From assembly GCF_000179635.2 (NCBI RefSeq), contig NC_014833.1, forward strand, positions 840,001 to 872,000: 32,000 nucleotides of DNA. The letters run 5' to 3'. Shown here one piece after another: positions 2,325 through 32,000 of the stretch (positions within the stretch are counted from its first letter, which is position 1; every line of letters starts with the position of its first letter). A program made the translations under genes and the position numbers. The notes under the pieces were generated by a model. The model ran no database searches. It was not told the DNA's origin and saw only the letters and a list, made by a program, of their open reading frames with translations. Source of the DNA: Ruminococcus albus 7 = DSM 20455 (GTDB taxonomy: Bacteria; Bacillota; Clostridia; Oscillospirales; Ruminococcaceae).

Positions 2325-3617
2325 TTATCTGGCAGTAAGGACAAATGATCTTCTGTCGATATCATAGGTATCCCATTTACCGTTGATTTTGGCACATATA
2401 ACTATCTCATACTTATGACCGCGATACAGACTTGGCGACATATACTCATTAGAATCGGTATAAGCCTGAACTTTCCACTTGCCTGCGATCTTTACAGCAA
2501 CGCCGTACTCTTCAGCATCAGAAACTCTTGTCCAGAACATACGGAATCGGCGTGAATTCAGATCATACTCCATTGATAACAGACTTGGATAATAGCCCCT
2601 TCCCTGGGCATCAGTGACCCTGAATTTAATGCCGTTATCCAGAGCATAATTCATCGCCTCAGATTTTTTGTGAACAGTAATTTTAAGTTTCGGCAACGGC
2701 TTATAGCAATCATTCTCGTAATCGTATTTATCAAATACATGGCTTCCTATTTCAACTACACTTGAAGGTATAACTGCACCTTGAAGTGCTGTACAGTTTC
2801 CAAACACACCATTACCCAATTCAGTTACTTTATCCGGTATAGTTATATCTTTAAGACTTGTGCATCCGCAAAAGATATTGCTTTCGATAGACTTTAAATT
2901 TTCTGATAAAACAACACTCTTTAATTCTGTACAATATTCAAATGCCGATGATTTCAAAGAAGTAACTTTGTCAGGTATAACTATCGATTTCAATGACGAG
3001 CAAAATCCGAATACTCTTTCATCGACAGTCTTTAGTTTTTTTGATAAAGTTATGCTTTCAAGAGATGAACAACCCAGAAAAGCTGCTTTTCCAATAGAAA
3101 CAACTCTGTCAGGTATAACGATCTCTTTCAAAGCTTCACAATCGATGAATGCACCCTCACCGATAGTTTTCAAGTTATTCGATAAAGTTATATTTTCAAG
3201 ATTATCGCAGTCAAAAAAGGCATAAACACCAATGGATGTCACGCTGTCAGGCAGATCGATATCTACAAGACCATTGCAATCAGCAAATGCTTGTTCTCCT
3301 ATGATCTCCACACCATCGGGTATAATTATTTTTTCGATTTTTCTGCCATGAAATGCATCATCACAAATGGCAGTAACATATTCATCATTTATCTCCTCCG
3401 GTATCTCGACCACAGTATCACGACCCATGTATCCTGTTATACCGATAGTACCATCTTCAAGCACAGTGTAATAAAAATCACCGTATCTGAATTCCTCAGT
3501 TCTTTCCGCACTTGCAGATATAACTGTACTGCTGTTAACTGCCATATCAGGTACAGCTGCACCGCCAAATACGAATGTCAGCGCCAGCAGACCCGCCGTG
3601 ATTTTCTTGTTATTCAT
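2325..3617 (-). CDS. BspA-type leucine-rich-repeat secreted surface protein with diverged C-terminal conserved module
   Basis: The likely start is ATG at 3617 (MNNKKITAGLLALTFVFGGAAVP signal peptide) behind RBS AGGAGGT. About 10 repeats of IxIPDxVxxIGxxAFxxCxxLxxI. The C-terminus RFRMFWTRVSDAEEYGVAVKIAGKWKVQ...INGKWDT is a diverged copy of the shared module. Confidence 0.85.
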   Translation of the reverse strand: MNNKKITAGLLALTFVFGGAAVPDMAVNSSTVISASAERTEEFRYGDFYYTVLEDGTIGITGYMGRDTVVEIPEEINDEYVTAICDDAFHGRKIEKIIIPDGVEIIGEQAFADCNGLVDIDLPDSVTSIGVYAFFDCDNLENITLSNNLKTIGEGAFIDCEALKEIVIPDRVVSIGKAAFLGCSSLESITLSKKLKTVDERVFGFCSSLKSIVIPDKVTSLKSSAFEYCTELKSVVLSENLKSIESNIFCGCTSLKDITIPDKVTELGNGVFGNCTALQGAVIPSSVVEIGSHVFDKYDYENDCYKPLPKLKITVHKKSEAMNYALDNGIKFRVTDAQGRGYYPSLLSMEYDLNSRRFRMFWTRVSDAEEYGVAVKIAGKWKVQAYTDSNEYMSPSLYRGHKYEIVICAKINGKWDTYDIDRRSFVLTAR

Positions 3618-22011: not shown

Positions 22012-23169
22012 TCATACTTCAGGAAGAGTATCTATCATTCTCAGAATATATTTTCTGACAGCCACAGCATCTGCATCGGTTATGCCATCGCCACTGCCCG
22101 AACAATCAGCGTTTATTTTTCCCTGCTCAGTCAGCTTATACTTTGAAGGTGCTGACAATGTCTGCTTGATAAGTACGAAATCAGAAATATCCACTTTTCC
22201 GTCGCAGTTTGCATCACCATAAACTGCCTTTGGATTATCCGGAATATTGCTCTCTGTTATGGGAGCCATGCTCGGTTCGGTATCACCCCACCAGTCCCAA
22301 CGGTCAGCGGTACGGTATTTCTCCATATTTCCGCCTGCCGAAGTCCAGGTAAACACATTGTCGTAAAGATGCCCTTCGTTATAATAAAACTGTGCCATCG
22401 AACAGATCTCATCAGCATAGGTCTTGTATGCACCATCGTCCTCAGCCATATAGCACCAGCCTGTATTAAAGCCCTTAAGGCTGTTCCTTATGACCTGATA
22501 GCCGTGCATTCCCTCTTCATTAATACAGATCTCAGCAAAGTGGAGTATCTTTCTGATACCCATGTGATTTGAGATTATACAATCATAGAAATTGGATTCC
22601 GTGAAAGAATACTGAAACATCTCAGGGACGTTGTCCTCGGGCATGAACTTGGGATTGCAGTCTGCAAAAGCAGTAACAGCGGTCTGAAGAGTACCATATG
22701 CATGGGCAGAGTTAACACCCCAGCCGTCTTCATAGGCTGTTTCATGGTCTGAGCCTATCTTGCCTTCACCCAGAGTAGATTCACGGGTACCAAGTCCAAG
22801 AAACAAAGCATACACCTTTTCACGTTCCGGTTGGCCAAGACGAGTGGAGATAAGATCCCAGTGCTCATCTATCTCTTTATAGAGAGCGTACTTTACCTCC
22901 TGCACTGTCATATTATGGTTGATAGCGCGTATCTCAGCCGTAGAAGCGTTTGCAGGAGTATTTCTCTCCCCAAAGCCAAGGGGATTGCCAACTCCTTCCT
23001 TCTGTATATCACGGGAAGTATCGTGCAGAGGGTCGCAGGTATTTCCGGCACAATACCATTCGTCTGCCGAAGCAACGATAGAAGTATCCATATCACCTGC
23101 CGATATCGACATTGATGATACGATCATTGCAGCCGCGGTAATGACACCGAAAAATCGTCTTTTATTCAT
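22012..23169 (-). CDS. Secreted dockerin-bearing protein with a possible lysozyme-like/lytic-transglycosylase-like domain
   Basis: The likely start is ATG at 23169 after RBS GAGGTG, with signal peptide MNKRRFFGVITAAAMIVSSMSISA. The C-terminal type I dockerin duplicate is GDANCDGKVDISDFVLIKQ ... DCSGSGDGITDADAVAVRKYIL. The central motifs TRES, AYGTLQ and GFNTGW resemble SLT motifs ES / GLMQ / AYNxG. Confidence 0.75.
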   Translation of the reverse strand: MNKRRFFGVITAAAMIVSSMSISAGDMDTSIVASADEWYCAGNTCDPLHDTSRDIQKEGVGNPLGFGERNTPANASTAEIRAINHNMTVQEVKYALYKEIDEHWDLISTRLGQPEREKVYALFLGLGTRESTLGEGKIGSDHETAYEDGWGVNSAHAYGTLQTAVTAFADCNPKFMPEDNVPEMFQYSFTESNFYDCIISNHMGIRKILHFAEICINEEGMHGYQVIRNSLKGFNTGWCYMAEDDGAYKTYADEICSMAQFYYNEGHLYDNVFTWTSAGGNMEKYRTADRWDWWGDTEPSMAPITESNIPDNPKAVYGDANCDGKVDISDFVLIKQTLSAPSKYKLTEQGKINADCSGSGDGITDADAVAVRKYILRMIDTLPEV

Positions 23170-23303
23170 AAATAACACCTCATGTTTTGAGTCGATTTAC
23201 TGACACGGACAGACCTCTGTCAAAGTGAAATTGAGGTCTGTCCAGATTACCGTTACAAATTATATCACATTTCCATGTAAATTTCAATATGATATTATAA
23301 AAA

Positions 23304-23445
23304 ATGGCTATCCCCTTAACACACTGCACGCAAAATCACTGCACCAAAGCAGTCGATAGCCTTAAATACGCACTGTTTCCAAGTTTACAGCAGTTGGATC
23401 AGTAGCAGTATTCGGCAACATATAACGCTGTGTGGATCTTTTCGC
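23304..23445 (-). mobile_element. Truncated, diverged third IS1595-family copy (right-end ~140 bp only, inverted orientation)
   Basis: ATGGCTATCCCCTTAACACACTGCACG...CACTGCACCAAAGCAG...AGCAGTATTCGGCAACATATAACGCTGTGTGGATCTTTTCG aligns by eye (mostly matching, with scattered mismatches) to the reverse complement of 10141-10293. Homology ends 11 bp before the xylanase stop codon. Confidence 0.75.
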
Positions 23446-23456
23446 CTACTCAGTTA

Positions 23457-24512
23457 TCACTCTACAGTAAAAGTCACAGCGTTTTTGATAGCATTTGCAG
23501 TATCCCATTTGCCATTAACTTTGGCTGCGATAGCTACGTTGTAGGTCTTGCCCGGGGTGAGGTTCTTGGGAGTAGTATATTCTGTATCGGTGATACTCGC
23601 CTCCTGAACTCTCCACTTGCCTGCCAGATAAACAGCTACGCCGTAACTGTCAGCACCATTTACAGCGTCCCAAGTAAATCTCATCTGCTTGTACTGGCTG
23701 TCATATTCCATCTGTATGTTCTTAACGGAATCATCTTTATGATGTCCGCAGTCACAGATGCCTCGTGGATACATATTCATAGAAACTTCAACCTGACCAT
23801 CGCTCTCCCAACCTTCAACGCTGAAAGAAATATCGTACAGGTTCCCCACCTTCATACCCAGGTCCTCCCAAGCCTTGAAGTGTTTGGAAACGCTGATAGT
23901 ACCCTTGGTTCTCGTGTTCTGACGTATGCTTATATACTGTGTGAAATACCTGTCGCCTTCGATGGTATAGGAATTTTTGTTTATAGTATATACCTTGTAC
24001 TCACTTCCGTCAATATTAACGGAACCCTTGTACTGTGCAGAAGCAGACTGCGCAGGTGACCAGTTCTTCCAGTCTTCAATGATGTAGTACTCTACCAGAG
24101 GATTCTGCGCCCAGCCGTAGATACCGATCCTGGCGTTACCGGATGAACCTGCATACCAGATGCAGTCGTAGTCACAGTAGAAATTACCATAGTCCTTGTA
24201 AGTCTTGGGATTATTCAGACCCCAGCGAAGACCACGATTAGTAATGAAGTTTCCTCTCGTGTTGTTAGGACCACACTTCCACTGTGCGCGGAAACCACCG
24301 TCATTTTCGTGCAGTGTCATTGTAGAAGAATTATTGGTATCTGCCTGCCAGATCTCGTGGTGGTAGTCGTTGTACCAGCCGACTTCCTGTGTGTGTGACG
24401 GGCTCGTAGTGAGCGTCTTTGCAGCAGATGCAGTAACTGATGTTATAATAGGTGAAACCATCAGCACACCGGCAACAAGAGCGCCTAAAACACGTTTTGA
24501 AACATTTTTCAT
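23457..24512 (-). CDS. Glycoside hydrolase family 11 endo-1,4-beta-xylanase with conserved C-terminal module
   Basis: Signal peptide MKNVSKRVLGALVAGVLMVSPIITSVTASA after RBS GAGGAG. GH11 hallmarks YGWAQNPLVEYYIIEDW (nucleophile Glu) and SVEGWESDG (acid/base Glu). C-terminus is YKQMRFTWDAVNGADSYGVAVYLAGKWRVQ... Confidence 0.92.
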   Translation of the reverse strand: MKNVSKRVLGALVAGVLMVSPIITSVTASAAKTLTTSPSHTQEVGWYNDYHHEIWQADTNNSSTMTLHENDGGFRAQWKCGPNNTRGNFITNRGLRWGLNNPKTYKDYGNFYCDYDCIWYAGSSGNARIGIYGWAQNPLVEYYIIEDWKNWSPAQSASAQYKGSVNIDGSEYKVYTINKNSYTIEGDRYFTQYISIRQNTRTKGTISVSKHFKAWEDLGMKVGNLYDISFSVEGWESDGQVEVSMNMYPRGICDCGHHKDDSVKNIQMEYDSQYKQMRFTWDAVNGADSYGVAVYLAGKWRVQEASITDTEYTTPKNLTPGKTYNVAIAAKVNGKWDTANAIKNAVTFTVE

Positions 24513-25110
24513 AAGCTATTTCTCCTCGCTATCAAAAAGATTAAAACTATATATAGATACTTAAATGATACAACGCATTGACTTTTTCGGTTCAATATTA
24601 TTTGATTATATTTTATAATTTTTTAGTAATTGGTTCTAATTATATTTTGCTTATTATCATTTTAGCAATACCATAAATTGCTATTTATTGCCTTTTAGTC
24701 ATCAACTATTTACTTTTTAAATTATAATTACCACAAATCTTTTAATCATTATAAGATAAGCATTCAACACATAAAACCCCGGAATTGCGCGGCTTCGCAG
24801 GATTGATAGCATAGAAAATGTATGTTCATAAATAAGGATCCGTCTGACATTAATACAATTTTTTTGTCATAAATTCAACATTTTTCATGCTAATATTGAT
24901 AGGCTTTAAATCGTACATCATACTCAAAGTATCAGTTAATTATCCGTTGTTTGTAATTTCACCGGTTTCTTACTCCCTATGAGTATTACAACAGCCTTTT
25001 TGACGACAGAAACAGTCTTTCCAAGACCGATACAGATGCGACATTTATGTGTATAAATGATGTTTGTATTGATAGGAATGATTTGAAATTTAAGTAGTTT
25101 AATATTACAG

Positions 25111-25154
25111 AAAATAACCGCCCCATTCCGTTTATAACAGTGGAATGGGGCGGT
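25111..25154 (-). terminator. Rho-independent terminator of the four-gene operon
   Basis: A perfect 13-bp GC-rich stem ACCGCCCCATTCC / GGAATGGGGCGGT followed on the minus strand by TATTTT. It lies 30 bp after the stop at 25185. Confidence 0.75.
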
Positions 25155-25184
25155 AGTTTATTCGTCATTTTGGTGTGGATCTGC

Positions 25185-25886
25185 TCATCTTGTGATATTA
25201 GCAATAGCGGCGGATATAACATCTTCTACGCCGCAGACTTTATCAATTTTATCCTTGTCGGGAGCATTCCTTAGTTCTGCGATACCTGCTCTCCACAAAA
25301 CCAGAGTATTTACATTCAGTGAATCTATCCGCTGTGACATGGCACTGTTGCGGGTGTACATATCAGATATCATCATAATACCTTGTGATGCTATGTTTGC
25401 CGAGATTACAAGGTCGTTTATTTTTTTATCTGCAAGGATCTGGTAGTATTTCCAGTCGGTATCTTTATCTTTGTTTTTCATATGTTCACTCAATGCGGCT
25501 GATGCTTCATTAAGCTCCTGTATGCAGCACTCCAGCACTTGTTTCATGGTGTCAAGCAGCATATTCTCTTTGTATAGTCCTATGTATATTTCCTGAAAGC
25601 TATCGGATATCCTCTGGGCTTCTTTGTCAGCTTTTTCAGCATTGTCAATGAGTCTTGCGTAGCTTATAGTTCCCACAAATCCCTTGTATTTTGCCAGACC
25701 GTTTATCTTTAGCTGGTCTGAAGCAAGGGTCAGGACATTTATAGCTTTGTCAGGCATCCTATCCTGCTGTATTCTGAATAACATATCTGATGTATCAGCT
25801 ATTCTCTTCTGAACATCTCCTGCATATGAGGGGAGAAGTTCAAAGGTCATCATATCGGGGGTATATTTCTTGGTACTATTCAGCAT
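25185..25886 (-). CDS. Short TelA-like (toxic anion resistance/YaaN-KlaB family-like) helical protein; gene 4 of the operon
   Basis: 233 aa, all-helical in character. ADKKINDLVISANIASQGIMMISDMYTRNSAMSQRIDSLNVNTLVLWRAGIAEL parallels the conserved TelA core (..DKR.HDL..S.Q...Q...I.....N.....KI.S......PLWK.Q..), recalled from memory. Its start overlaps the upstream stop (ATGCTGA). The ORF call is solid; the family call is moderate. Confidence 0.65.
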   Translation of the reverse strand: MLNSTKKYTPDMMTFELLPSYAGDVQKRIADTSDMLFRIQQDRMPDKAINVLTLASDQLKINGLAKYKGFVGTISYARLIDNAEKADKEAQRISDSFQEIYIGLYKENMLLDTMKQVLECCIQELNEASAALSEHMKNKDKDTDWKYYQILADKKINDLVISANIASQGIMMISDMYTRNSAMSQRIDSLNVNTLVLWRAGIAELRNAPDKDKIDKVCGVEDVISAAIANITR

Positions 25887-26770
25887 GACCTGTTCACCTT
25901 AGCAAGCTTGATATACTTATCAAGATCTATCTTCTTAAAAAAATTATAACTGTCACAATTTATATCCTGACCAAATATACCCATCTGAACTGGTGATGAA
26001 ATGACTATATCAGTATCGGGTATATTGAAGATATCACGGAACTGGTCTTCCGTAAGAGGCTGACCATAATAGGGATACCAGTTCTTTTCGTGGAATGACA
26101 TGGACTCCATCACCCTCAGCACGACACGTCGTAAAAACATAACCGAGCACATGGGGTAGAAGCATTTTTTCATATTAATAGGTTCCGACGGGCTTTTCAG
26201 CCTTATCTCGGAGTTGAACACCTCGTCATTGCTGTAGCATGAGCTGAACACTTTAAGGTCAACACCTATGCCGTATTCTTCAAGCAGTTTTATCAGACTG
26301 AGAGTCAGCGCGCCGCGGTTGGTGACTGCCTGCTCTAAGGTGTGAATTGAATATGCCAGATTGAACCATATAGTAACGAATTTTTTCTCTCTTGCTCTTG
26401 TGAGCCTGTACATTGTCTTCGGAGTACCTGCCACGTACGCGGGAATATTTGGGTGAGAGCCTGCCATTGCCTTTTCCTGCCTGCGTCTGTAAGTTCTTAT
26501 CGGCATAGTCTTTTCAAATTCCTTCAGCATTTCCAGTGTAATGTCATAATTACCCGTATATCCGCCGATAAGATAATCTACAGCATTATCAAAGGTATCC
26601 TCGGGAAAATCCGGACGTCTGATGATACTGTGCTGTTTGAGAAATATTTTGTCGTTTACTTTAGGTTTGCTGAGTATATACATCTGCATATCACTCAGAC
26701 TGTTGAACGCCGCATTGTATACAGTCATTTTTTTGTATTGGTATACTTTGAGGTTCATAAATTCTCTCAT
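25880..26770 (-). CDS. Unknown protein, partner immediately downstream of the AAA_5 NTPase; gene 3 of the operon
   Basis: 296 aa. ATGA start/stop overlap with the NTPase gene. No motif I can assign. The strand-helix pattern KKFVTIWFNLAYSIH...RGALTLSLIKLLEEYGIGVDLKVF could be a degenerate vWA/Rossmann-like core without a DxSxS MIDAS. Confidence 0.75.
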   Translation of the reverse strand: MREFMNLKVYQYKKMTVYNAAFNSLSDMQMYILSKPKVNDKIFLKQHSIIRRPDFPEDTFDNAVDYLIGGYTGNYDITLEMLKEFEKTMPIRTYRRRQEKAMAGSHPNIPAYVAGTPKTMYRLTRAREKKFVTIWFNLAYSIHTLEQAVTNRGALTLSLIKLLEEYGIGVDLKVFSSCYSNDEVFNSEIRLKSPSEPINMKKCFYPMCSVMFLRRVVLRVMESMSFHEKNWYPYYGQPLTEDQFRDIFNIPDTDIVISSPVQMGIFGQDINCDSYNFFKKIDLDKYIKLAKVNRSC

Positions 26771-28911
26771 CGTCTTGTTTCTCCGTTTCGTATAGCGTTA
26801 ACTATATTGCTGAACACGCTGAATATCCCGACACTTTTTCTTTCACGACCGTCGTAGAACTTTGCCATTTCTCTCTGTAGAAATGCAAGATATTCGCTGT
26901 CCTTGGTCTCAACGAATTCATATCTGACGATCGCCTCGACATCGTAACTCTGGTGATCAAGGTACTTCTTTATGCTGGTTGCATCACGGGTGGTGAATAT
27001 ACCCGGAGCTGCTGTCTGATTTTCTTTGCTCCATGCAGTGGTGGCATTGCGGAAGACCTCAGCGAATTCAAACCACTGAGGATAATTACAAAGTATGTTC
27101 TCTTCAAGTCTGTTATCGTAATCAACGTATATCGCTGTGAATCTCTGCATGAGAGATTCCTCTATCTTCTCACGGGTGCTGTAATTCCTGTCAGCGCCGT
27201 CACCTGCGGTGTTGCCTGCTGCTATGATACGGAAATTCGGGTGGCGCATTACTCGCTCGCCGTTAGGGAAGCAGTAGCTTGCATTTTTGGAATTGGACAT
27301 AAAGCTGTTGAGTTTTACTGCTGCCCTGATATTGCCATTATCAAATTCATCGCAGAAAACTATACCGCCGTATTTGTATGCTCGGTAGAATGCAGGATAG
27401 TTGTATCCGCCGTCCGCTGTCTGGAATCCCAGCAGGTCATATTCCTCGTTTATGTAGCCGATATCCAGATATTCCAGTCCCAACAGCTTGGCTATCTGCC
27501 CTACAAGAAAAGTTTTTCCGCAGCCGGATGGGCCTATCATATATGGGTTTGAATCTTCGATTACAGCGGTGATTATATCATCGAAATGCTCATGATAAAG
27601 AGTATTGTTTTCATCGATATACTTCTGCTTTTTCTCCATGAGTTTTGCGAACCTGTCTTTGAAGGGATAGGATTCATCAAAGAAGAAATTAGGTGTCATA
27701 TCAGCAGGCTCGGTGCATCTCTGGGCATTTATCTGAACTATGGTTGGGTGCACTCCTGCCGCCACCTGTATTGGTGCGGCAGCTGCTTCAGTTTTTTCGG
27801 CGTCGAAATTTTTGCTGAACTCATCAACGCGTATTATTCTGTTCACCAGATCACTGCTCTTGTTTACCTCTGATATGATATTTTTCAGTTCGCCGTTGTT
27901 AAGCATTGACGAGGCTCTGTCAATAGCTTTGTTTGCCTCCGTGTTTATGCGGAAAAGCTCTGCGGCTGTGTTGTCCTTTATGCCTGAAGCCAACAGTTTA
28001 AGCTCTCTTATCTTACTGTCCGCAGAATCTATGACATCTCTGATCAGCTTATCCTTTTCAAACACTATACTGTCATGTTCTTCGTTCAGAAAAGCATCAA
28101 AAGATTCTTTCAACTTGAATTCCGCATTCTTTGCTTCTCTTGTAAGTTTTTCCGTCTCACTAAGTGTGAGATCCTTGATAGTCTTTTCATTCTGCTCAAC
28201 AAATCTTTTGAAGCTGTCGAGGCGATCTTCTGTAAGGTCGAGAGTGTGCTTTGCGTTCTCAAGGTTTTCCTTGCTGTTTTTCAGCAACATCTCAGACCTT
28301 GCTATCCTTTCTTCACTGATATCGTATATTCCGCAAGCCATTCGCGCATAGCTGAGAAGTTTTTCACATTCGATCTCTTTGTCATGAGCACTGCATATCT
28401 TGATAGCACCGCTTATAAGCGATGAGGCAAAGCTTTTCTCATTGTTGTGGTACTGTCTGAGCTCACAGCTGAAAGTATTGATATAATAGATGTTTTTTTC
28501 TGCTGTTGGTATATCTGCAATGGTGCACATGGTATCGATGTAGATCTGCTTGTCACTGAAACATAAATACATCTCTTTAGTGAACAATCCTGAATGATAG
28601 ATGCCGTCCTTTTCAAATATTTTCAAAAATACTGCATTTGCAAACCTGAAATCTTTGGTTGCTTTTCCGAGAGGAAGTACGGTGCGGTAGATATCCTCTG
28701 CATCTTTCATTATTTCTATAGGCGATTTTTCACTTCGGGAAGTTATAATGCTGTTGACCAGCTTTGAAAGTGTTTCTTCCGAGCCGAATCTGTTTTTATC
28801 GGGCTCCCGCTTTATCTCACTGAGGTATATACTCAGCGGAACATATTTATCGTCCTTTTTTAACGCTGCCTTGACCGCCTGCAATATTGCGTCTATCCTG
28901 TTTTTTGTCAT
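26767..28911 (-). CDS. Coiled-coil-containing AAA_5 (MoxR/McrB-like) NTPase; gene 2 of the operon
   Basis: 714 aa. Walker A GPSGCGKT (27511-27534), Walker B IVFCDEFD (27340-27363), sensor region IIAAGNTAGDGAD (27190-27228) and LMQRF. The N-terminal ~190-aa domain is unassigned. A long E/K/L-rich heptad-like segment covers about aa 195-345 (27879-28329). Confidence 0.85.
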   Translation of the reverse strand: MTKNRIDAILQAVKAALKKDDKYVPLSIYLSEIKREPDKNRFGSEETLSKLVNSIITSRSEKSPIEIMKDAEDIYRTVLPLGKATKDFRFANAVFLKIFEKDGIYHSGLFTKEMYLCFSDKQIYIDTMCTIADIPTAEKNIYYINTFSCELRQYHNNEKSFASSLISGAIKICSAHDKEIECEKLLSYARMACGIYDISEERIARSEMLLKNSKENLENAKHTLDLTEDRLDSFKRFVEQNEKTIKDLTLSETEKLTREAKNAEFKLKESFDAFLNEEHDSIVFEKDKLIRDVIDSADSKIRELKLLASGIKDNTAAELFRINTEANKAIDRASSMLNNGELKNIISEVNKSSDLVNRIIRVDEFSKNFDAEKTEAAAAPIQVAAGVHPTIVQINAQRCTEPADMTPNFFFDESYPFKDRFAKLMEKKQKYIDENNTLYHEHFDDIITAVIEDSNPYMIGPSGCGKTFLVGQIAKLLGLEYLDIGYINEEYDLLGFQTADGGYNYPAFYRAYKYGGIVFCDEFDNGNIRAAVKLNSFMSNSKNASYCFPNGERVMRHPNFRIIAAGNTAGDGADRNYSTREKIEESLMQRFTAIYVDYDNRLEENILCNYPQWFEFAEVFRNATTAWSKENQTAAPGIFTTRDATSIKKYLDHQSYDVEAIVRYEFVETKDSEYLAFLQREMAKFYDGRERKSVGIFSVFSNIVNAIRNGETRR

Positions 28912-28921
28912 ATCCTTCCAC

Positions 28922-30037
28922 CTATTCGTTATCTTTATGTAAGTATCTGTCTATTATTTCAACACCGGGTATACCAAAAAGATCATCCTTGATTTTTTTG
29001 ATCTCTCCATCGTTTATATGTCGGTAATAATATCCTTCCTGTGAGCTGTCCAGGCTCTTTATGATTCTTGTGCAGCACAGTTTTGATTGTACAAGCAGCC
29101 TGGTTTTTTCTCTGAATATTTCATGAACTACCGATATCTCACTTTTTCTGCCGTTGCAGAGTTCTTCCTCATATATCTGAGTTATCATTTCGCTGTCATT
29201 GCAGTAAATTGTTTCTTTATCCGTCATGAAGATCTTTTCGCCCCAAGGCAATAAAGCTCCCTGAGCATAATTGCCGCCGATCTCGCATATCAGCTTCACT
29301 TCCTCAGACATTTCAGTTTTTTCAAGCTCGGGAGAGATCTCCTCACAGAATATCACTTGTCCGTCTTCGATGATCATACATCTGAGGCTGTTCTGTAATA
29401 GATCGTATATATATTCATGTCGAAGCTCCCTATCGGTAAAACTTTGGGTTATCACTTCGGTTTTTGAATGGGCATACCTGAGCGTGATCTGTGCTGTGTG
29501 AGTGCCATTGAATAGATTTCCCAGAGTATAAACATATTCGTTACCCTGTGAAGTTATGCTGCATGGCAGTTGTTTATTTATTCCGTTGACAGTACAGGAT
29601 ATCATATATCTGTTTCTGTTCCCTTTGATGTTTGAAAGCCTAAATGTTGCTTCTGCATCACTGTATATCTTTGAAAGAAAGTATTCGATGAAATTTTTGG
29701 AAAACATACCTGTGCCGAACGTCAGTACCTTTTCTTCATGCTTACTGCACTCAGCAATAAAGTTGAAACGCGTGGGGAAACTAAGTTTTTTACGTTTCTC
29801 AATTATCTCGGAAGTATAGTCGTCGAAACAGCTTTCGGGGTAATTGAGATACAATCGGTCTGCTGTTTTTGCCAGCATGGAGAAGTAGTCGTCATATTCA
29901 CATAGATTGATATACTTATTTCCGTTATATATCACTATCAGTGCCTGTGTGTTATCAGGCATGGTGTAATATCTTATCAGATCTGCTTTTTCTATCTGAG
30001 ATATTTCCAACTGAGTTCTGCTCATGAATGGTGTCAT
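28922..30037 (-). CDS. Unknown protein; gene 1 of the operon
   Basis: 371 aa. The ATG is 10 nt after RBS AGGAG (30048-30052). There is a 10-bp gap containing GGTGGAAGGA before the next gene. No signal peptide, TM segment or motif I recognise. Confidence 0.75.
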   Translation of the reverse strand: MTPFMSRTQLEISQIEKADLIRYYTMPDNTQALIVIYNGNKYINLCEYDDYFSMLAKTADRLYLNYPESCFDDYTSEIIEKRKKLSFPTRFNFIAECSKHEEKVLTFGTGMFSKNFIEYFLSKIYSDAEATFRLSNIKGNRNRYMISCTVNGINKQLPCSITSQGNEYVYTLGNLFNGTHTAQITLRYAHSKTEVITQSFTDRELRHEYIYDLLQNSLRCMIIEDGQVIFCEEISPELEKTEMSEEVKLICEIGGNYAQGALLPWGEKIFMTDKETIYCNDSEMITQIYEEELCNGRKSEISVVHEIFREKTRLLVQSKLCCTRIIKSLDSSQEGYYYRHINDGEIKKIKDDLFGIPGVEIIDRYLHKDNE

Positions 30038-30072
30038 AGTTTACGCACTCCTGTACGCGTTAGAATTATAAT

Positions 30073-30105
30073 ATGGTTATCTTTTAGCACACCACATGAT
30101 CTTAC
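30073..30105 (+). repeat. Solo IS1595-like terminal inverted-repeat remnant
   Basis: ATGGTTATCTTTTAGCACACCACATGATCTTAC versus the IS left end ATGGTTATCCCTTTAACACACCACAGATAATTTAC. Most positions match, with one small gap. The flanking sequence is unrelated to the IS interior. Confidence 0.4.
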
Positions 30106-30189
30106 ATTATTATAAGCGTTTATAAAGGATCTGTTATCTATCAGGTAAATTATGTGGTAACTTAGGTGCGCATGACTGATATCCATTAA

Positions 30190-30362
30190 ATATTATATCA
30201 TATGTATCAATAAAAGTAAAGCAACTGCAACGTGCTTGAATGTTAGCTTTAGTTGCGAAGCCTCACACGACTAAAGTCGCGTGCTTCCAATAGTGTCCTA
30301 TAGGACACGCCCACTTTAGGAGGGCGGACTACGTTTCTACCATACAGCCTGAACTCAGAAAA
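30190..30362 (-). ncRNA. Candidate omega-RNA (reRNA) scaffold/right end of the TnpB element (boundaries approximate)
   Basis: It lies immediately 3' of the tnpB stop. Dense hairpins on the minus strand: CGCCC-n10-GGGCG, GTGTCC-TATA-GGACAC, GAAGC[CACGCGAC-TTTA-GTCGTGTG]AGGCTTC and GCAAC-n21-GTTGC. The complementary ACTTTAGT / ACTAAAG segments suggest a pseudoknot. Confidence 0.45.
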
Positions 30363-31688
30363 TTATGCTGTTGGAGCAATAAATTCCGCATTCAGGTTAA
30401 CTAAGGTAGAGAACGTGCAGGTGCTTCTCTTACTGCATTGAGGGACTTTAGCCTCAATGAGCAACCTTGAATTCTCATCCAAGGATTTTAATATTTCACG
30501 TATGAAGTATCTTGCCCCTATATTATACGAAGCAGATAGATCACAGTTGTAGGTCTTGCCATTTTGAAATTTGCATAGCTCATAGGTATTGAAACCACCG
30601 AATTTACCACGAAGTACAAAACCACTGCCATCGTAGGCAAGGCGTGACGTATTCCATGCACAGATATGGCTTACTCTCATACCTAGTCTGTGAGCTTTAT
30701 TCGTTACAATAGACTGAACTTCCTGACTGCGCCACAGCTTGAGTTTCTGCTTTTTAGAACCGCGGACCTTACCGTTCTTGTCTAAATGCTCAAATACAAT
30801 AACATCTGCATTATAAAGAACAGCTATATCTACGATGCAGGCAGCAGTTTTAGTGGCAATGTCGTGATTGATTCCTTTGGCTTTTGCCCAAAGCCTTGGT
30901 GTTTTATAGTTACCATGCTGCTGAGCTTTTTTTATACGGTTAACACAATGCATAAGATGGTCTGTTTCTTTGGTAAGCTTATAAAAATGCCTTCCAAGAA
31001 TAGTGCCATCTGAACGCATTACGGAAATCGTAGCTGCGGTGTTTATTCCAAGATCTACAGCAACAATGGTCTGTTCATACACAGATATATCTGCAAGTTT
31101 GACCTTTTCCTCAAACGGAAAGTCCAAAAACCACTCCTTGCCTCGTTTTTGAAGTGTTGGAGCGCATTGCTTGCGAAAATTGCAATGTCTGTATATATAA
31201 TCCATATCAGACTTTTTAAAGTTTATCGTTATCCAGTCCCATGTATTACGGATGTAGACTTTGATCTGGGCAGTATAATCACCGGTCTGATTGTACATTC
31301 CTGTACGATACATTGACGGAAATGTATATCCTGCTTTTGGATACGATGGTTCTCTGCCTACAGGATCTTTTATCCAATTGGCGAGATTGCTTTTGTAAGA
31401 TGATACCTTGCCTATAGCTTCGTTAATAGCACCACGGCGCAGATAGCTTGGCATCTTATAGAATTTTGTATCAAAATCATAAATTGGATCGGGATTATCT
31501 TTTGTAGAATGGATCAGTGTTTCAATATATGTGAGTTTACTCACCCCTTTGAATGAAACAATGTTATCCCATTTATCAAGACATACTTTGATAAGGTAAT
31601 CTACAGCATGTCTGTATACGATAACGGTATCTTTAAAGATGTTGTTGTAATGCTTGATCTTAACGCTATAAGTCGTATATATCTGCAT
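30363..31688 (-). CDS. tnpB: IS200/IS605-family TnpB-like RNA-guided endonuclease (OrfB), with no TnpA nearby
   Basis: 441 aa. The RuvC triad context is IVAVDLGIN (D), DVIVFEHLD (E) and YNCDLSASYNIGARY (D, matching the hADxNAAxNI motif). RBS GGAGGGAG upstream. The usual CxxC...CxxC zinc finger between E and the last D appears degenerate. Confidence 0.85.
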   Translation of the reverse strand: MQIYTTYSVKIKHYNNIFKDTVIVYRHAVDYLIKVCLDKWDNIVSFKGVSKLTYIETLIHSTKDNPDPIYDFDTKFYKMPSYLRRGAINEAIGKVSSYKSNLANWIKDPVGREPSYPKAGYTFPSMYRTGMYNQTGDYTAQIKVYIRNTWDWITINFKKSDMDYIYRHCNFRKQCAPTLQKRGKEWFLDFPFEEKVKLADISVYEQTIVAVDLGINTAATISVMRSDGTILGRHFYKLTKETDHLMHCVNRIKKAQQHGNYKTPRLWAKAKGINHDIATKTAACIVDIAVLYNADVIVFEHLDKNGKVRGSKKQKLKLWRSQEVQSIVTNKAHRLGMRVSHICAWNTSRLAYDGSGFVLRGKFGGFNTYELCKFQNGKTYNCDLSASYNIGARYFIREILKSLDENSRLLIEAKVPQCSKRSTCTFSTLVNLNAEFIAPTA

Positions 31689-31852
31689 ACTGTAGACTCC
31701 CTCCTTCTACTTAGTTTTTTGAGAATTAATGTAATCAGTTACCTGTTTAAGACTTCTGTCGCTTACAGTTGCTACAAAATACGATGGATTCCATATATAT
31801 TTATTATAGTAGATTTTTTTAAGAATTTAAAATTTTATATACTTAAAAGTTG

Positions 31853-31886
31853 TTCTGTGTTTGTGTCACGCGTGACACAAACAGAA
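31853..31886. repeat. Long palindrome upstream of tnpB (candidate left-end subterminal hairpin)
   Basis: TTCTG(TG)TTTGTGTCACG|CGTGACACAAACAGAA forms 16 bp of pairing with a 2-nt bulge. The central 22 nt are a perfect palindrome. Confidence 0.6.
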
Positions 31887-31920
31887 TTCAATTTTTCTTT
31901 TTATGAGGTTTAATATGCAG

Positions 31921-31954
31921 AAAGACAGCTAAGCTTACACACTTAGCTGTCTTT
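31921..31954. repeat. 13-bp stem hairpin near the window end
   Basis: AAAGACAGCTAAG-CTTACACA-CTTAGCTGTCTTT. There is no adjacent T-tract on either strand, so it is not a classical terminator. Confidence 0.5.
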
Positions 31955-32000
31955 CACTTAAGAATTATAGTATCTGACATTCTTAATTGAGGCTTACAGT

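Follow-up and report, generated by a model that had tools for sequence, protein, structure and literature searches.

The window analysed here is a 32,000-nucleotide stretch of DNA that carries a tnpB gene near its right-hand edge, an open reading frame (ORF) of 441 amino acids at positions 30363-31688. This gene, the element around it and the gene cluster downstream all lie on the minus strand. Read in the direction of the gene, the ORF is preceded by a segment of non-tnpA DNA (31794-32000) and by a 3' remnant of a tnpA gene (31707-31793), and its 3' end is overlapped by a conserved omega-RNA scaffold of at least 230 nucleotides (30255-30484), which stops at the right end (RE) of the element. 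Taken together, the locus is very probably the right-hand 1.75 kb of a non-autonomous element of about 1.9 kb from the IS200/IS605 family, with an intact tnpB and an omega-RNA. The element is a tnpA-deleted copy of a common IS605-type element of rumen and gut Firmicutes.

The TnpB protein and its active site

An earlier note on this DNA had described the gene product as a 441-residue TnpB with an intact RuvC triad, and both parts of that description hold. The protein matched NCBIfam NF040570 (guided_TnpB) at 69.8 bits (E 2.6e-19; cut-off 100), Pfam PF01385 (OrfB_IS605) at 23.6 bits (gathering threshold 30.5) and Pfam PF07282 (Cas12f1-like TNB) at 17.6 bits (gathering threshold 26.3). A search of the PDB with the single sequence returned TnpB 9nzp alone (E 0.0033), and a profile built from 54 members of its clade matched Cas12f 9nzq (2.8e-15), CnCas12f1 8hr5 (1.1e-14) and TnpB 9nzp (2.3e-14), with weaker matches to more Cas12f chains and then to Cas12j, Cas12g, Cas12a, Cas12k and Cas12e chains. 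Neither the single sequence nor the clade profile reached ISDra2 TnpB in the PDB at E<=1. The AlphaFold2 model of the protein has a mean predicted local distance difference test score (pLDDT) of 76 and a predicted template modelling score (pTM) of 0.61, and its top Foldseek matches were AsCas12f, OsCas12f, Cas12g and ISDra2 TnpB, with template modelling scores of about 0.5. Because of these profile and fold matches, the protein is a genuine but divergent TnpB. The PADLOC models for Cas12f and Cas12u3 gave only weak matches to it (1e-12 to 1e-13), and an exact-sequence look-up found no match on record. Plasmid-borne relatives in Butyrivibrio, Bacillus, Enterococcus and others are named “RNA-guided endonuclease TnpB family protein” or “transposase” in RefSeq.

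The three catalytic residues are D212 in the motif AVDLG (codon at 31053-31055), E300 in VFEHL (30789-30791) and D383 in NCDLSASYNIG (30540-30542). They align with the RuvC-I, RuvC-II and RuvC-III motifs of the solved Cas12f and TnpB chains in the hidden Markov model (HMM) alignments. E300 is invariant among the 54 clade members, and D212 and D383 are each conserved in at least 90% of them. The RuvC-III consensus of the clade, N[CA]DLNAS (NCDLSAS in the window), fits the class that Altae-Tran et al. 2023 call “derived, NADXN”. The ratio of nonsynonymous to synonymous substitution rates (dN/dS) of tnpB was 0.03-0.09 against distant copies and 0.26-0.28 against the closest ones, and the gene is under purifying selection across the family.

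The clade to which the protein belongs is large: at E<=1e-3 it comprises over 7000 clusters when grouped at 90% identity and 1475 when grouped at 50%. It carries the recent Pfam label PF27142 (“Aq_aa04”). Its members range over Lachnospiraceae, Ruminococcus, Bacillus, Enterococcus and Aquifex plasmids. Two proteins in the collection have unusual domain combinations, each being either a gene-call fusion or a real variant: P0271 (616 amino acids) has PF27142 plus a zinc-ribbon TNB domain (PF07282), and in P0017 (523 amino acids) a Y1_Tnp domain is fused to TnpB.

A TNB region without zinc-finger cysteines

The TNB-domain region of the window protein (residues 347-383; 30540-30650) lacks the C4 zinc finger. 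It reads NTSRLAYDGSG...ELCKFQNGKTYNCD, where the solved chains 9nzp and 9nzq read TSQxCxxCG...CxxCG...NADxNA. A proper alignment to these two chains brought no zinc-finger cysteines to light: cysteine occupies 0 of the 4 zinc-ligand positions, which are instead filled by LAYDGSG and KFQNG. The nearby C372 and C382 vary across the clade, and between residues 344 and 385 no Cys or His is conserved in it.

Among approximately 70 full-length representatives with 32-57% identity, the segment follows the pattern NTSxLA[FY]DGSG-x-V-x-R ... F-x-x-GKxYNxDLNASYNIGARY. D353, G354, F374 and Y380 are invariant in the clade, and S355, G356, R360, G377 and K378 are nearly so. Because this replacement motif is so strongly conserved clade-wide, the loss of the zinc finger is a trait of the whole lineage and not decay of the window copy. 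The finger had previously been called apparently degenerate; the C4 cysteines are indeed missing, but the region that replaces them is a conserved motif and not a degenerate one. A likeness of NTSxLAxDGSG to the Cas12a motif “TSKIDPxTGF” was considered but is not supported, as the Cas12a profile matches cover RuvC-I and RuvC-II only (profile positions 194-311), and no Cas12 came up at E<=10 when the TNB segment was searched by itself.

The census of Altae-Tran et al. 2023 (PMC10691335) reports that the zinc finger has been lost in some large TnpB branches, and describes its function as “unclear” and possibly lineage-specific. The loss as such is thus already published, and the interest of the present case lies mostly in the clade-wide zinc-free module and not in the window copy. 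We give even chances to the view that the cysteine-free NTSxLA[FY]DGSG...GKxYNxD module is a structurally distinct, zinc-independent TNB domain and that the members of this clade, which is very abundant in gut and rumen, are fully active, TTGAT-dependent RNA-guided nucleases. If so, the module would represent a natural way of loading the target strand that needs no zinc ribbon, and the clade could supply compact editors. A large clade that lacks the zinc finger, yet keeps the triad, an ISDra2-type target-adjacent motif (TAM) and the 3' RNA module, also offers a natural test of the role of the finger in the TNB domain.

Alternatively, the loss of the zinc finger could have turned the clade into RNA-guided DNA binders or nickases, similar to TldR or Cas12m, despite the presence of the triad. 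The absence of the finger throughout the clade is compatible with this, as are the uncertainty about its function expressed in the census and the fact that the model of the protein is least certain in the TNB region. However, the three catalytic residues vary little or not at all in the clade, and these are the residues that known nuclease-dead derivatives lose. The clade also keeps the association with tnpA, the left and right ends, the TAM and the multi-copy state, as a nuclease that serves in transposon retention would. Furthermore, Cas12a, whose Nuc domain has no C4 zinc finger, cuts DNA. We therefore consider a change to binding or nicking improbable, and prefer the reading that the clade consists of nucleases.

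The omega-RNA scaffold and the right end

We gathered 26 related genomic loci and aligned their 3' regions; the alignment A1 comprises 23 loci. Nucleotide conservation runs from inside the ORF over the stop codon to ...GTCGTGTGAGGCTTCAC (...GGCTTCAC) and ends sharply in every locus. In the window this boundary lies at 30255. The RE, as marked by the end of similarity between copies, contains the subterminal hairpin GGAAGCACGCGACTTTAGTCGTGTGAGGCTTCGC (30255-30288), and the 65 nucleotides at 30190-30254 are flank.

Within the conserved stretch, RNAalifold predicted 58 pairs in seven helices from the 23 sequences, and 27 of these pairs are supported by compensatory double changes. Paired cells amount to 96.8%, compared with 34-44% when the 3' partners were slid by one to three columns, and 0 of 500 shuffles reached the observed values on any of five measures. 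The window sequence alone (30255-30484) folds in the same way as the consensus, with a minimum free energy of -89.8 kcal/mol and a z-score of -5.82 (0 of 200 shuffles). The helices are H1 (30484-30477/30472-30465), H2 (30464-30452/30443-30430), H3 (30427-30423 with 30261-30257), H4 (30415-30402/30344-30332), H5 (30396-30385/30359-30348), H6 (approximately 30326-30308) and H7 (CACGCGAC-UUUA-GUCGUGUG, 30283-30264), with a variable hairpin at 30308-30293. The scaffold overlaps the ORF by roughly 120 nucleotides, and five helix arms fall within the last 120 nucleotides of the coding sequence.

The earlier note had placed a structured omega-RNA at 30190-30362, directly 3' of the stop codon. Although the 3' end of the gene does carry a structured and conserved RNA, that interval folds only marginally better than its shuffles (z = -1.85), and the alignment of copies moves the right end to 30255 and extends the scaffold into the ORF. 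When 29800-32000 was searched against Rfam 15 (E<=10), chance matches alone were returned, and neither an omega-RNA nor an IS605-orfB family was among them. The structure of the omega-RNA and its boundary are directly supported by the data, as are the homology of the protein, its triad and the absence of its zinc finger.

The helix H3 is a long-range pairing between GAAGC (30427-30423) and GCUUC (30261-30257). In the ISDra2 omega-RNA, the partner of nucleotides -5 to -3 is the distant stretch -103 to -105, and not the stretch -30 to -32 that had been predicted (PMC10097598). In L022 and L039, both strands of H3 change together (GAACA/UGUUC), while a local alternative partner, GGAAGC at 30288-30283, is unchanged, and in L015 the local alternative pairing is broken without compensation. 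The covariation of H3, which comes from only two or three informative lineages, supports H3 as the likely counterpart of the ISDra2 pseudoknot. In the window, H7 has its UUUA loop at -21 to -18, and stem 4 of ISDra2 has a UUUA tetraloop at -20 to -17 (PMC10097598).

Some parts of the scaffold differ between copies. The variable hairpin has grown by around 40 nucleotides into a longer stem in L009, L010, L020 and L021 (A1 columns 232-290), and both this hairpin and H6 are missing from L022 and L039. It looks like a tolerated, protein-distal region, similar to the disordered stem 3b of ISDra2. In the Anaerovoracaceae locus L024 (430-560), similarity stops after H6 and the RE hairpin is missing, so that the right end is truncated or recombined there.

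The left end, the target-adjacent motif and the loss of tnpA

The related loci include members with both tnpA and tnpB (L005, L006, L008, L011, L016, L019-L021, L025 and L034-L037) and members with tnpB only (L002, L004, L007, L010, L015, L017, L018 and L026). All of them have the left-end (LE) hairpin GCCGCCGCACRCTCGTGACTTTAGTCRTGAGTTAGGCGGC, whose core CGTGACTTTAGTCGTG is common to the RE hairpin; in total, LE hairpins with this core occur in 28 distinct relatives. At 10-12 nucleotides upstream of a fixed point in the LE hairpin (16 in L022), TTGAT (17 flanks) or TTGAC (6 flanks) is present in 23 of the 28 distinct left flanks. TTGAA occurs in two more, which brings the count for the three variants to 25 of 28. 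By comparison, only 3.2% of random 17-nucleotide windows contain TTGAY. The pattern is kept even in relatives with 52-58% protein identity, and TTGAT is the TAM of ISDra2. This points to the TAM-like motif TTGAY at the left ends as the putative TAM of the family.

The absence of a functional tnpA next to tnpB, which had been noticed before, is confirmed and can be traced to a deletion. In L020, TnpA is intact, with 142 amino acids and a Y1_Tnp domain (PF01797) at E 2.4e-43. The window retains only the last 28 codons and the stop codon (WNPSYFVATVSDRSLKQVTDYINSQKTK, 31707-31793), which match the C-terminus of the L020 protein. In place of mid-tnpA there is the segment at 31794-32000, which is collinear with L001 (Ruminococcus albus AR67), L027-L029 and L030-L032, but not with the tnpA-intact relatives. 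In L001, L027 and L030 the order is TTGAC, LE hairpin, a decayed 5' remnant of tnpA, the segment of about 200 nucleotides, the 3' remnant of tnpA and tnpB, and no intact tnpA was found between LE and tnpB in these three loci. Judging by the collinearity with L001, the window stops approximately 158 nucleotides short of the 5' remnant, the LE hairpin and TTGAC.

The replacement segment contains a terminator-like hairpin (31920-31955), a promoter-like site TTTAAA-17-TATAAT that precedes tnpB (31831-31803) and the perfect 26-nucleotide palindrome TGTTTGTGTCACGCGTGACACAAACA (31858-31883). A 34-nucleotide palindrome at 31853-31886 had been proposed as the left-end hairpin. This assignment fails, as the palindrome lies inside the element between the two tnpA remnants and is unrelated to the LE hairpin of the family, GCCGCCGCACRCTCGTGACTTTAGTCRTGAGTTAGGCGGC, which follows TTGAY and lies beyond the end of the window. 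It is confined to the tnpA-deleted sub-lineage (the window, L001 and L027-L030). In L001 (2814-2839), L027 and L030 it reads GATTGTGTCACGCGTGACACAATC, and the two symmetric substitutions relative to the window keep it perfect. It may be an operator or a hairpin that was brought in with the segment that replaced tnpA.

The tnpA-deleted derivative is present at no fewer than three different flanks (the window, L001 and L027), and also as stand-alone contigs of 1.8-1.9 kb that start at TTGAC, as is typical of a multi-copy repeat. Because the same derivative is found at several flanks and in such contigs, it appears to have spread after the loss of tnpA, presumably mobilised in trans. The LE and RE hairpins, the TTGAY motif, the tnpA remnant and the several insertion sites of the derivative are all direct observations. 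An empty site, which is expected to have TTGAY immediately before AACTAAAGCTAACATT and would fix the LE boundary to the base, was sought in metagenomes, but the scan yielded nothing except the orthologous site in its filled form (L033).

Among the members with tnpA and tnpB, P0323 (64% identity) is encoded on ParA-bearing contigs of approximately 11.1 kb (L034-L037), apparently a small plasmid, and is listed in 510 blocks of the collection, mostly on contigs of 2-20 kb. In L034, a second LE-type hairpin with TTGAT lies at 3016-3060, around 85 nucleotides downstream of RE.

Proposed history and present state of the window copy

We propose that the ancestor would have been an IS605-type unit composed, in order, of the TTGAY TAM, the left-end hairpin, tnpA (Y1 HUH), tnpB, omega-RNA, the right-end hairpin and flank. 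In one sub-lineage, most of tnpA would then have been swapped for about 200 nucleotides of unrelated DNA with a promoter-like site. The tnpB product would be a RuvC-only RNA-guided nuclease of the large clade with a NADxN-type RuvC-III motif (“Aq_aa04” in Pfam). By analogy with ISDra2, we infer nuclease activity, the length of the guide and a role in homing. The tnpB transcript would be processed to the omega-RNA, with the scaffold at 30484-30255 and a further 16-20 nucleotides at the 3' end (30254-30235) derived from the flank. TnpB loaded with this RNA would cut DNA in which TTGAY is followed by a match to the guide, that is, the sealed donor site after excision, and repair of the break by recombination would put the element back in place.

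Several observations weigh against this reading. A literature search, partly poorly targeted, found no biochemical data on the clade, and for a characterised TnpB without a zinc finger it returned only the statement of the census. The window protein misses the curated HMM cut-offs for guided_TnpB, OrfB_IS605 and TNB. Since pLDDT is below 50 at residues 344-358 and 377-385, the AlphaFold model is uninformative about the fold of the zinc-finger-free TNB region. The left end and the TAM of the window copy itself lie beyond the end of the window and are not visible. Two further points concern the window copy and its ortholog. The penultimate base of RE (30256, position -2) is G in the window (TTCGC) and A in all of the other 22 aligned copies (TTCAC), and this position takes part in the pseudoknot of ISDra2. 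The metagenome contig ODAI013710384.1 (L033) agrees with the window in its flank and in the G (L033:430), and its tnpB has an internal deletion of approximately 70 codons (residues ~310-381), by which ...GKVR is joined to CDLSAS.... As this deletion shows, no strong host-level selection acts on the copy at this site.

Because L033 shares both the flank and the G, the substitution at -2 arose at this site after the insertion. By analogy with ISDra2, it may weaken the omega-RNA of the window copy. The copy is probably immobile, because it lacks tnpA and carries this change at an otherwise invariant position of RE. The insertion is old and is decaying in at least one lineage, while the allele in the window is still intact.

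These features could also mean that the insertion is a decaying fossil, old, fixed and immobile, whose TnpB and omega-RNA have lost all function and whose ORF would be intact only because it has not yet had time to decay. Such a state would fit the reduction of tnpA to a remnant of 28 codons, the private substitution in RE that is shared with L033, the loss of residues ~310-381 from the orthologous tnpB and the dN/dS of 0.26-0.28 against the closest copies, which exceeds the family-wide 0.03-0.09. However, the ORF is full length and lacks none of the catalytic or clade-invariant residues, the window sequence retains every omega-RNA helix and has a minimum free energy fold equal to the consensus, a promoter-like site precedes tnpB, and even 0.28 is a dN/dS well below 1. 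We consider complete inactivity possible, but the less likely state, and retain the reading of a non-autonomous element with an intact tnpB and omega-RNA. Little hangs on the window copy as such; it adds one more tnpA-deleted IS605 derivative, for which the omega-RNA, RE and predicted guide coordinates are exact.

The predicted guide and the downstream genes

The predicted guide, AACUAAAGCUAACAUU..., comprises the first 16-20 nucleotides of the flank past RE (30235-30254), as deduced from the RE boundary and from the usage in ISDra2, which has a 16-nucleotide guide directly 3' of the scaffold (PMC10097598). Its sequence is unique in the window. A pseudoknot had been suggested between ACTTTAGT and ACTAAAG, but the second arm (30247-30253) is located in the non-conserved flank that forms the guide, outside the element, and ACTAAAG is found in no other copy. 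The suggested pairing is a chance match that joins the loop of H7 to the guide. The guide segment ACUAAAG is complementary to ACUUUAGU in the loop region of H7 (30270-30277), and this match could sequester the guide in the window copy only.

Approximately 15 nucleotides downstream of the guide, the flank contains a promoter-like site with an extended -10 element (30220-30192), followed by a cluster of a 50-amino-acid ORF and four genes (25185-30186). The four genes encode a 371-amino-acid protein without a Pfam match, a 714-amino-acid AAA_5 ATPase, a 296-amino-acid DUF7192 protein and a 233-amino-acid TelA-like protein. PADLOC and Pfam scans of this operon gave no match to a defence system, and a repeat-array search found no CRISPR array in 24000-32000. 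Further away, 22012-24512 encodes a GH11 xylanase that includes an fn3 domain, and a dockerin-bearing cellulase of the Cel124 type. These two genes indicate a cellulosome-bearing Ruminococcus-type host, in agreement with R. albus AR67 (L001) as the best genomic relative.

The earlier note had let the guide point toward the promoter region of the four-gene operon. The guide does adjoin the promoter-like site, but it is the mere flank of an insertion and implies no regulatory targeting; it abuts the promoter because the element landed there. A domesticated regulator, in which TnpB and the omega-RNA control the operon through this guide, would fit the position of the guide (30254-30235) some 15 nucleotides upstream of the promoter-like site and the transcription of element and operon in the same direction. 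However, reading into the flank is common to all IS605 right ends, and the derivative has further copies at unrelated sites. The native junction has RE (TTCGC) and not TTGAY before the match to the guide, and thus contains no licensed target. In contrast to TldR, the window protein has an intact RuvC triad, and the ortholog in L033 carries a deletion. Control of the operon by the element is thus highly improbable, and the position of the guide is better read as that of an ordinary insertion flank.

Comparison with known systems

Unlike the type V CRISPR-Cas systems, the window has no array adjoining tnpB. The best profile and fold matches are nevertheless to the group of Cas12f proteins and CRISPR-proximal TnpB (9nzq OsCas12f, 8hr5 CnCas12f1, 9nzp TnpB and 8j12 AsCas12f), with which the window protein shares the order WED-REC-RuvC-TNB at an identity of only ~14-16%. 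Members of this group have the CxxC...CxxC motif, and Cas12f has a CRISPR array, while neither is present here. TldR proteins resemble the window protein in their TnpB fold, in their omega-RNA-like guide and in the loss of the transposase. They differ in that they have lost the RuvC catalytic residues and have guides directed at host genes, where the window has an intact triad and a guide from the insertion flank.

The TnpB branches that lack the zinc finger (PMC10691335), such as RIIIr-4, are similar in being large natural lineages without the C4 motif that are presumed to be active. In RIIIr-4, however, the RuvC-III Asp is replaced by His and the genes are associated with RHH/MazE, while here D383 is kept and the neighbour in the relatives is a Y1 TnpA. 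As in insertion sequences of the IS605 type, hairpin ends and a target motif are present in the relatives and there are no terminal inverted repeats, although tnpA is intact only in the full-length relatives.

ISDra2 differs from the present element in its RuvC-III motif, which is DRDxN there and of the “derived” NADxN type here, in its zinc finger of the C331/C334/C351/C354 type, which has no counterpart here, and in its 116-nucleotide core, compared with a conserved scaffold of 230 nucleotides or more. The window protein is also too diverged from ISDra2 TnpB for sequence searches to connect the two. In overall organisation, the two elements are nevertheless alike. Both have a Y1 TnpA partner (here in the full-length relatives), subterminal hairpins at LE and RE, a TTGAT-type TAM at the left flank and only one RuvC active site. 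The omega-RNA of each covers the 3' end of tnpB and stops at RE, and in each the UUUA-tetraloop stem is followed by a pseudoknot strand with a distant partner and then by the guide.

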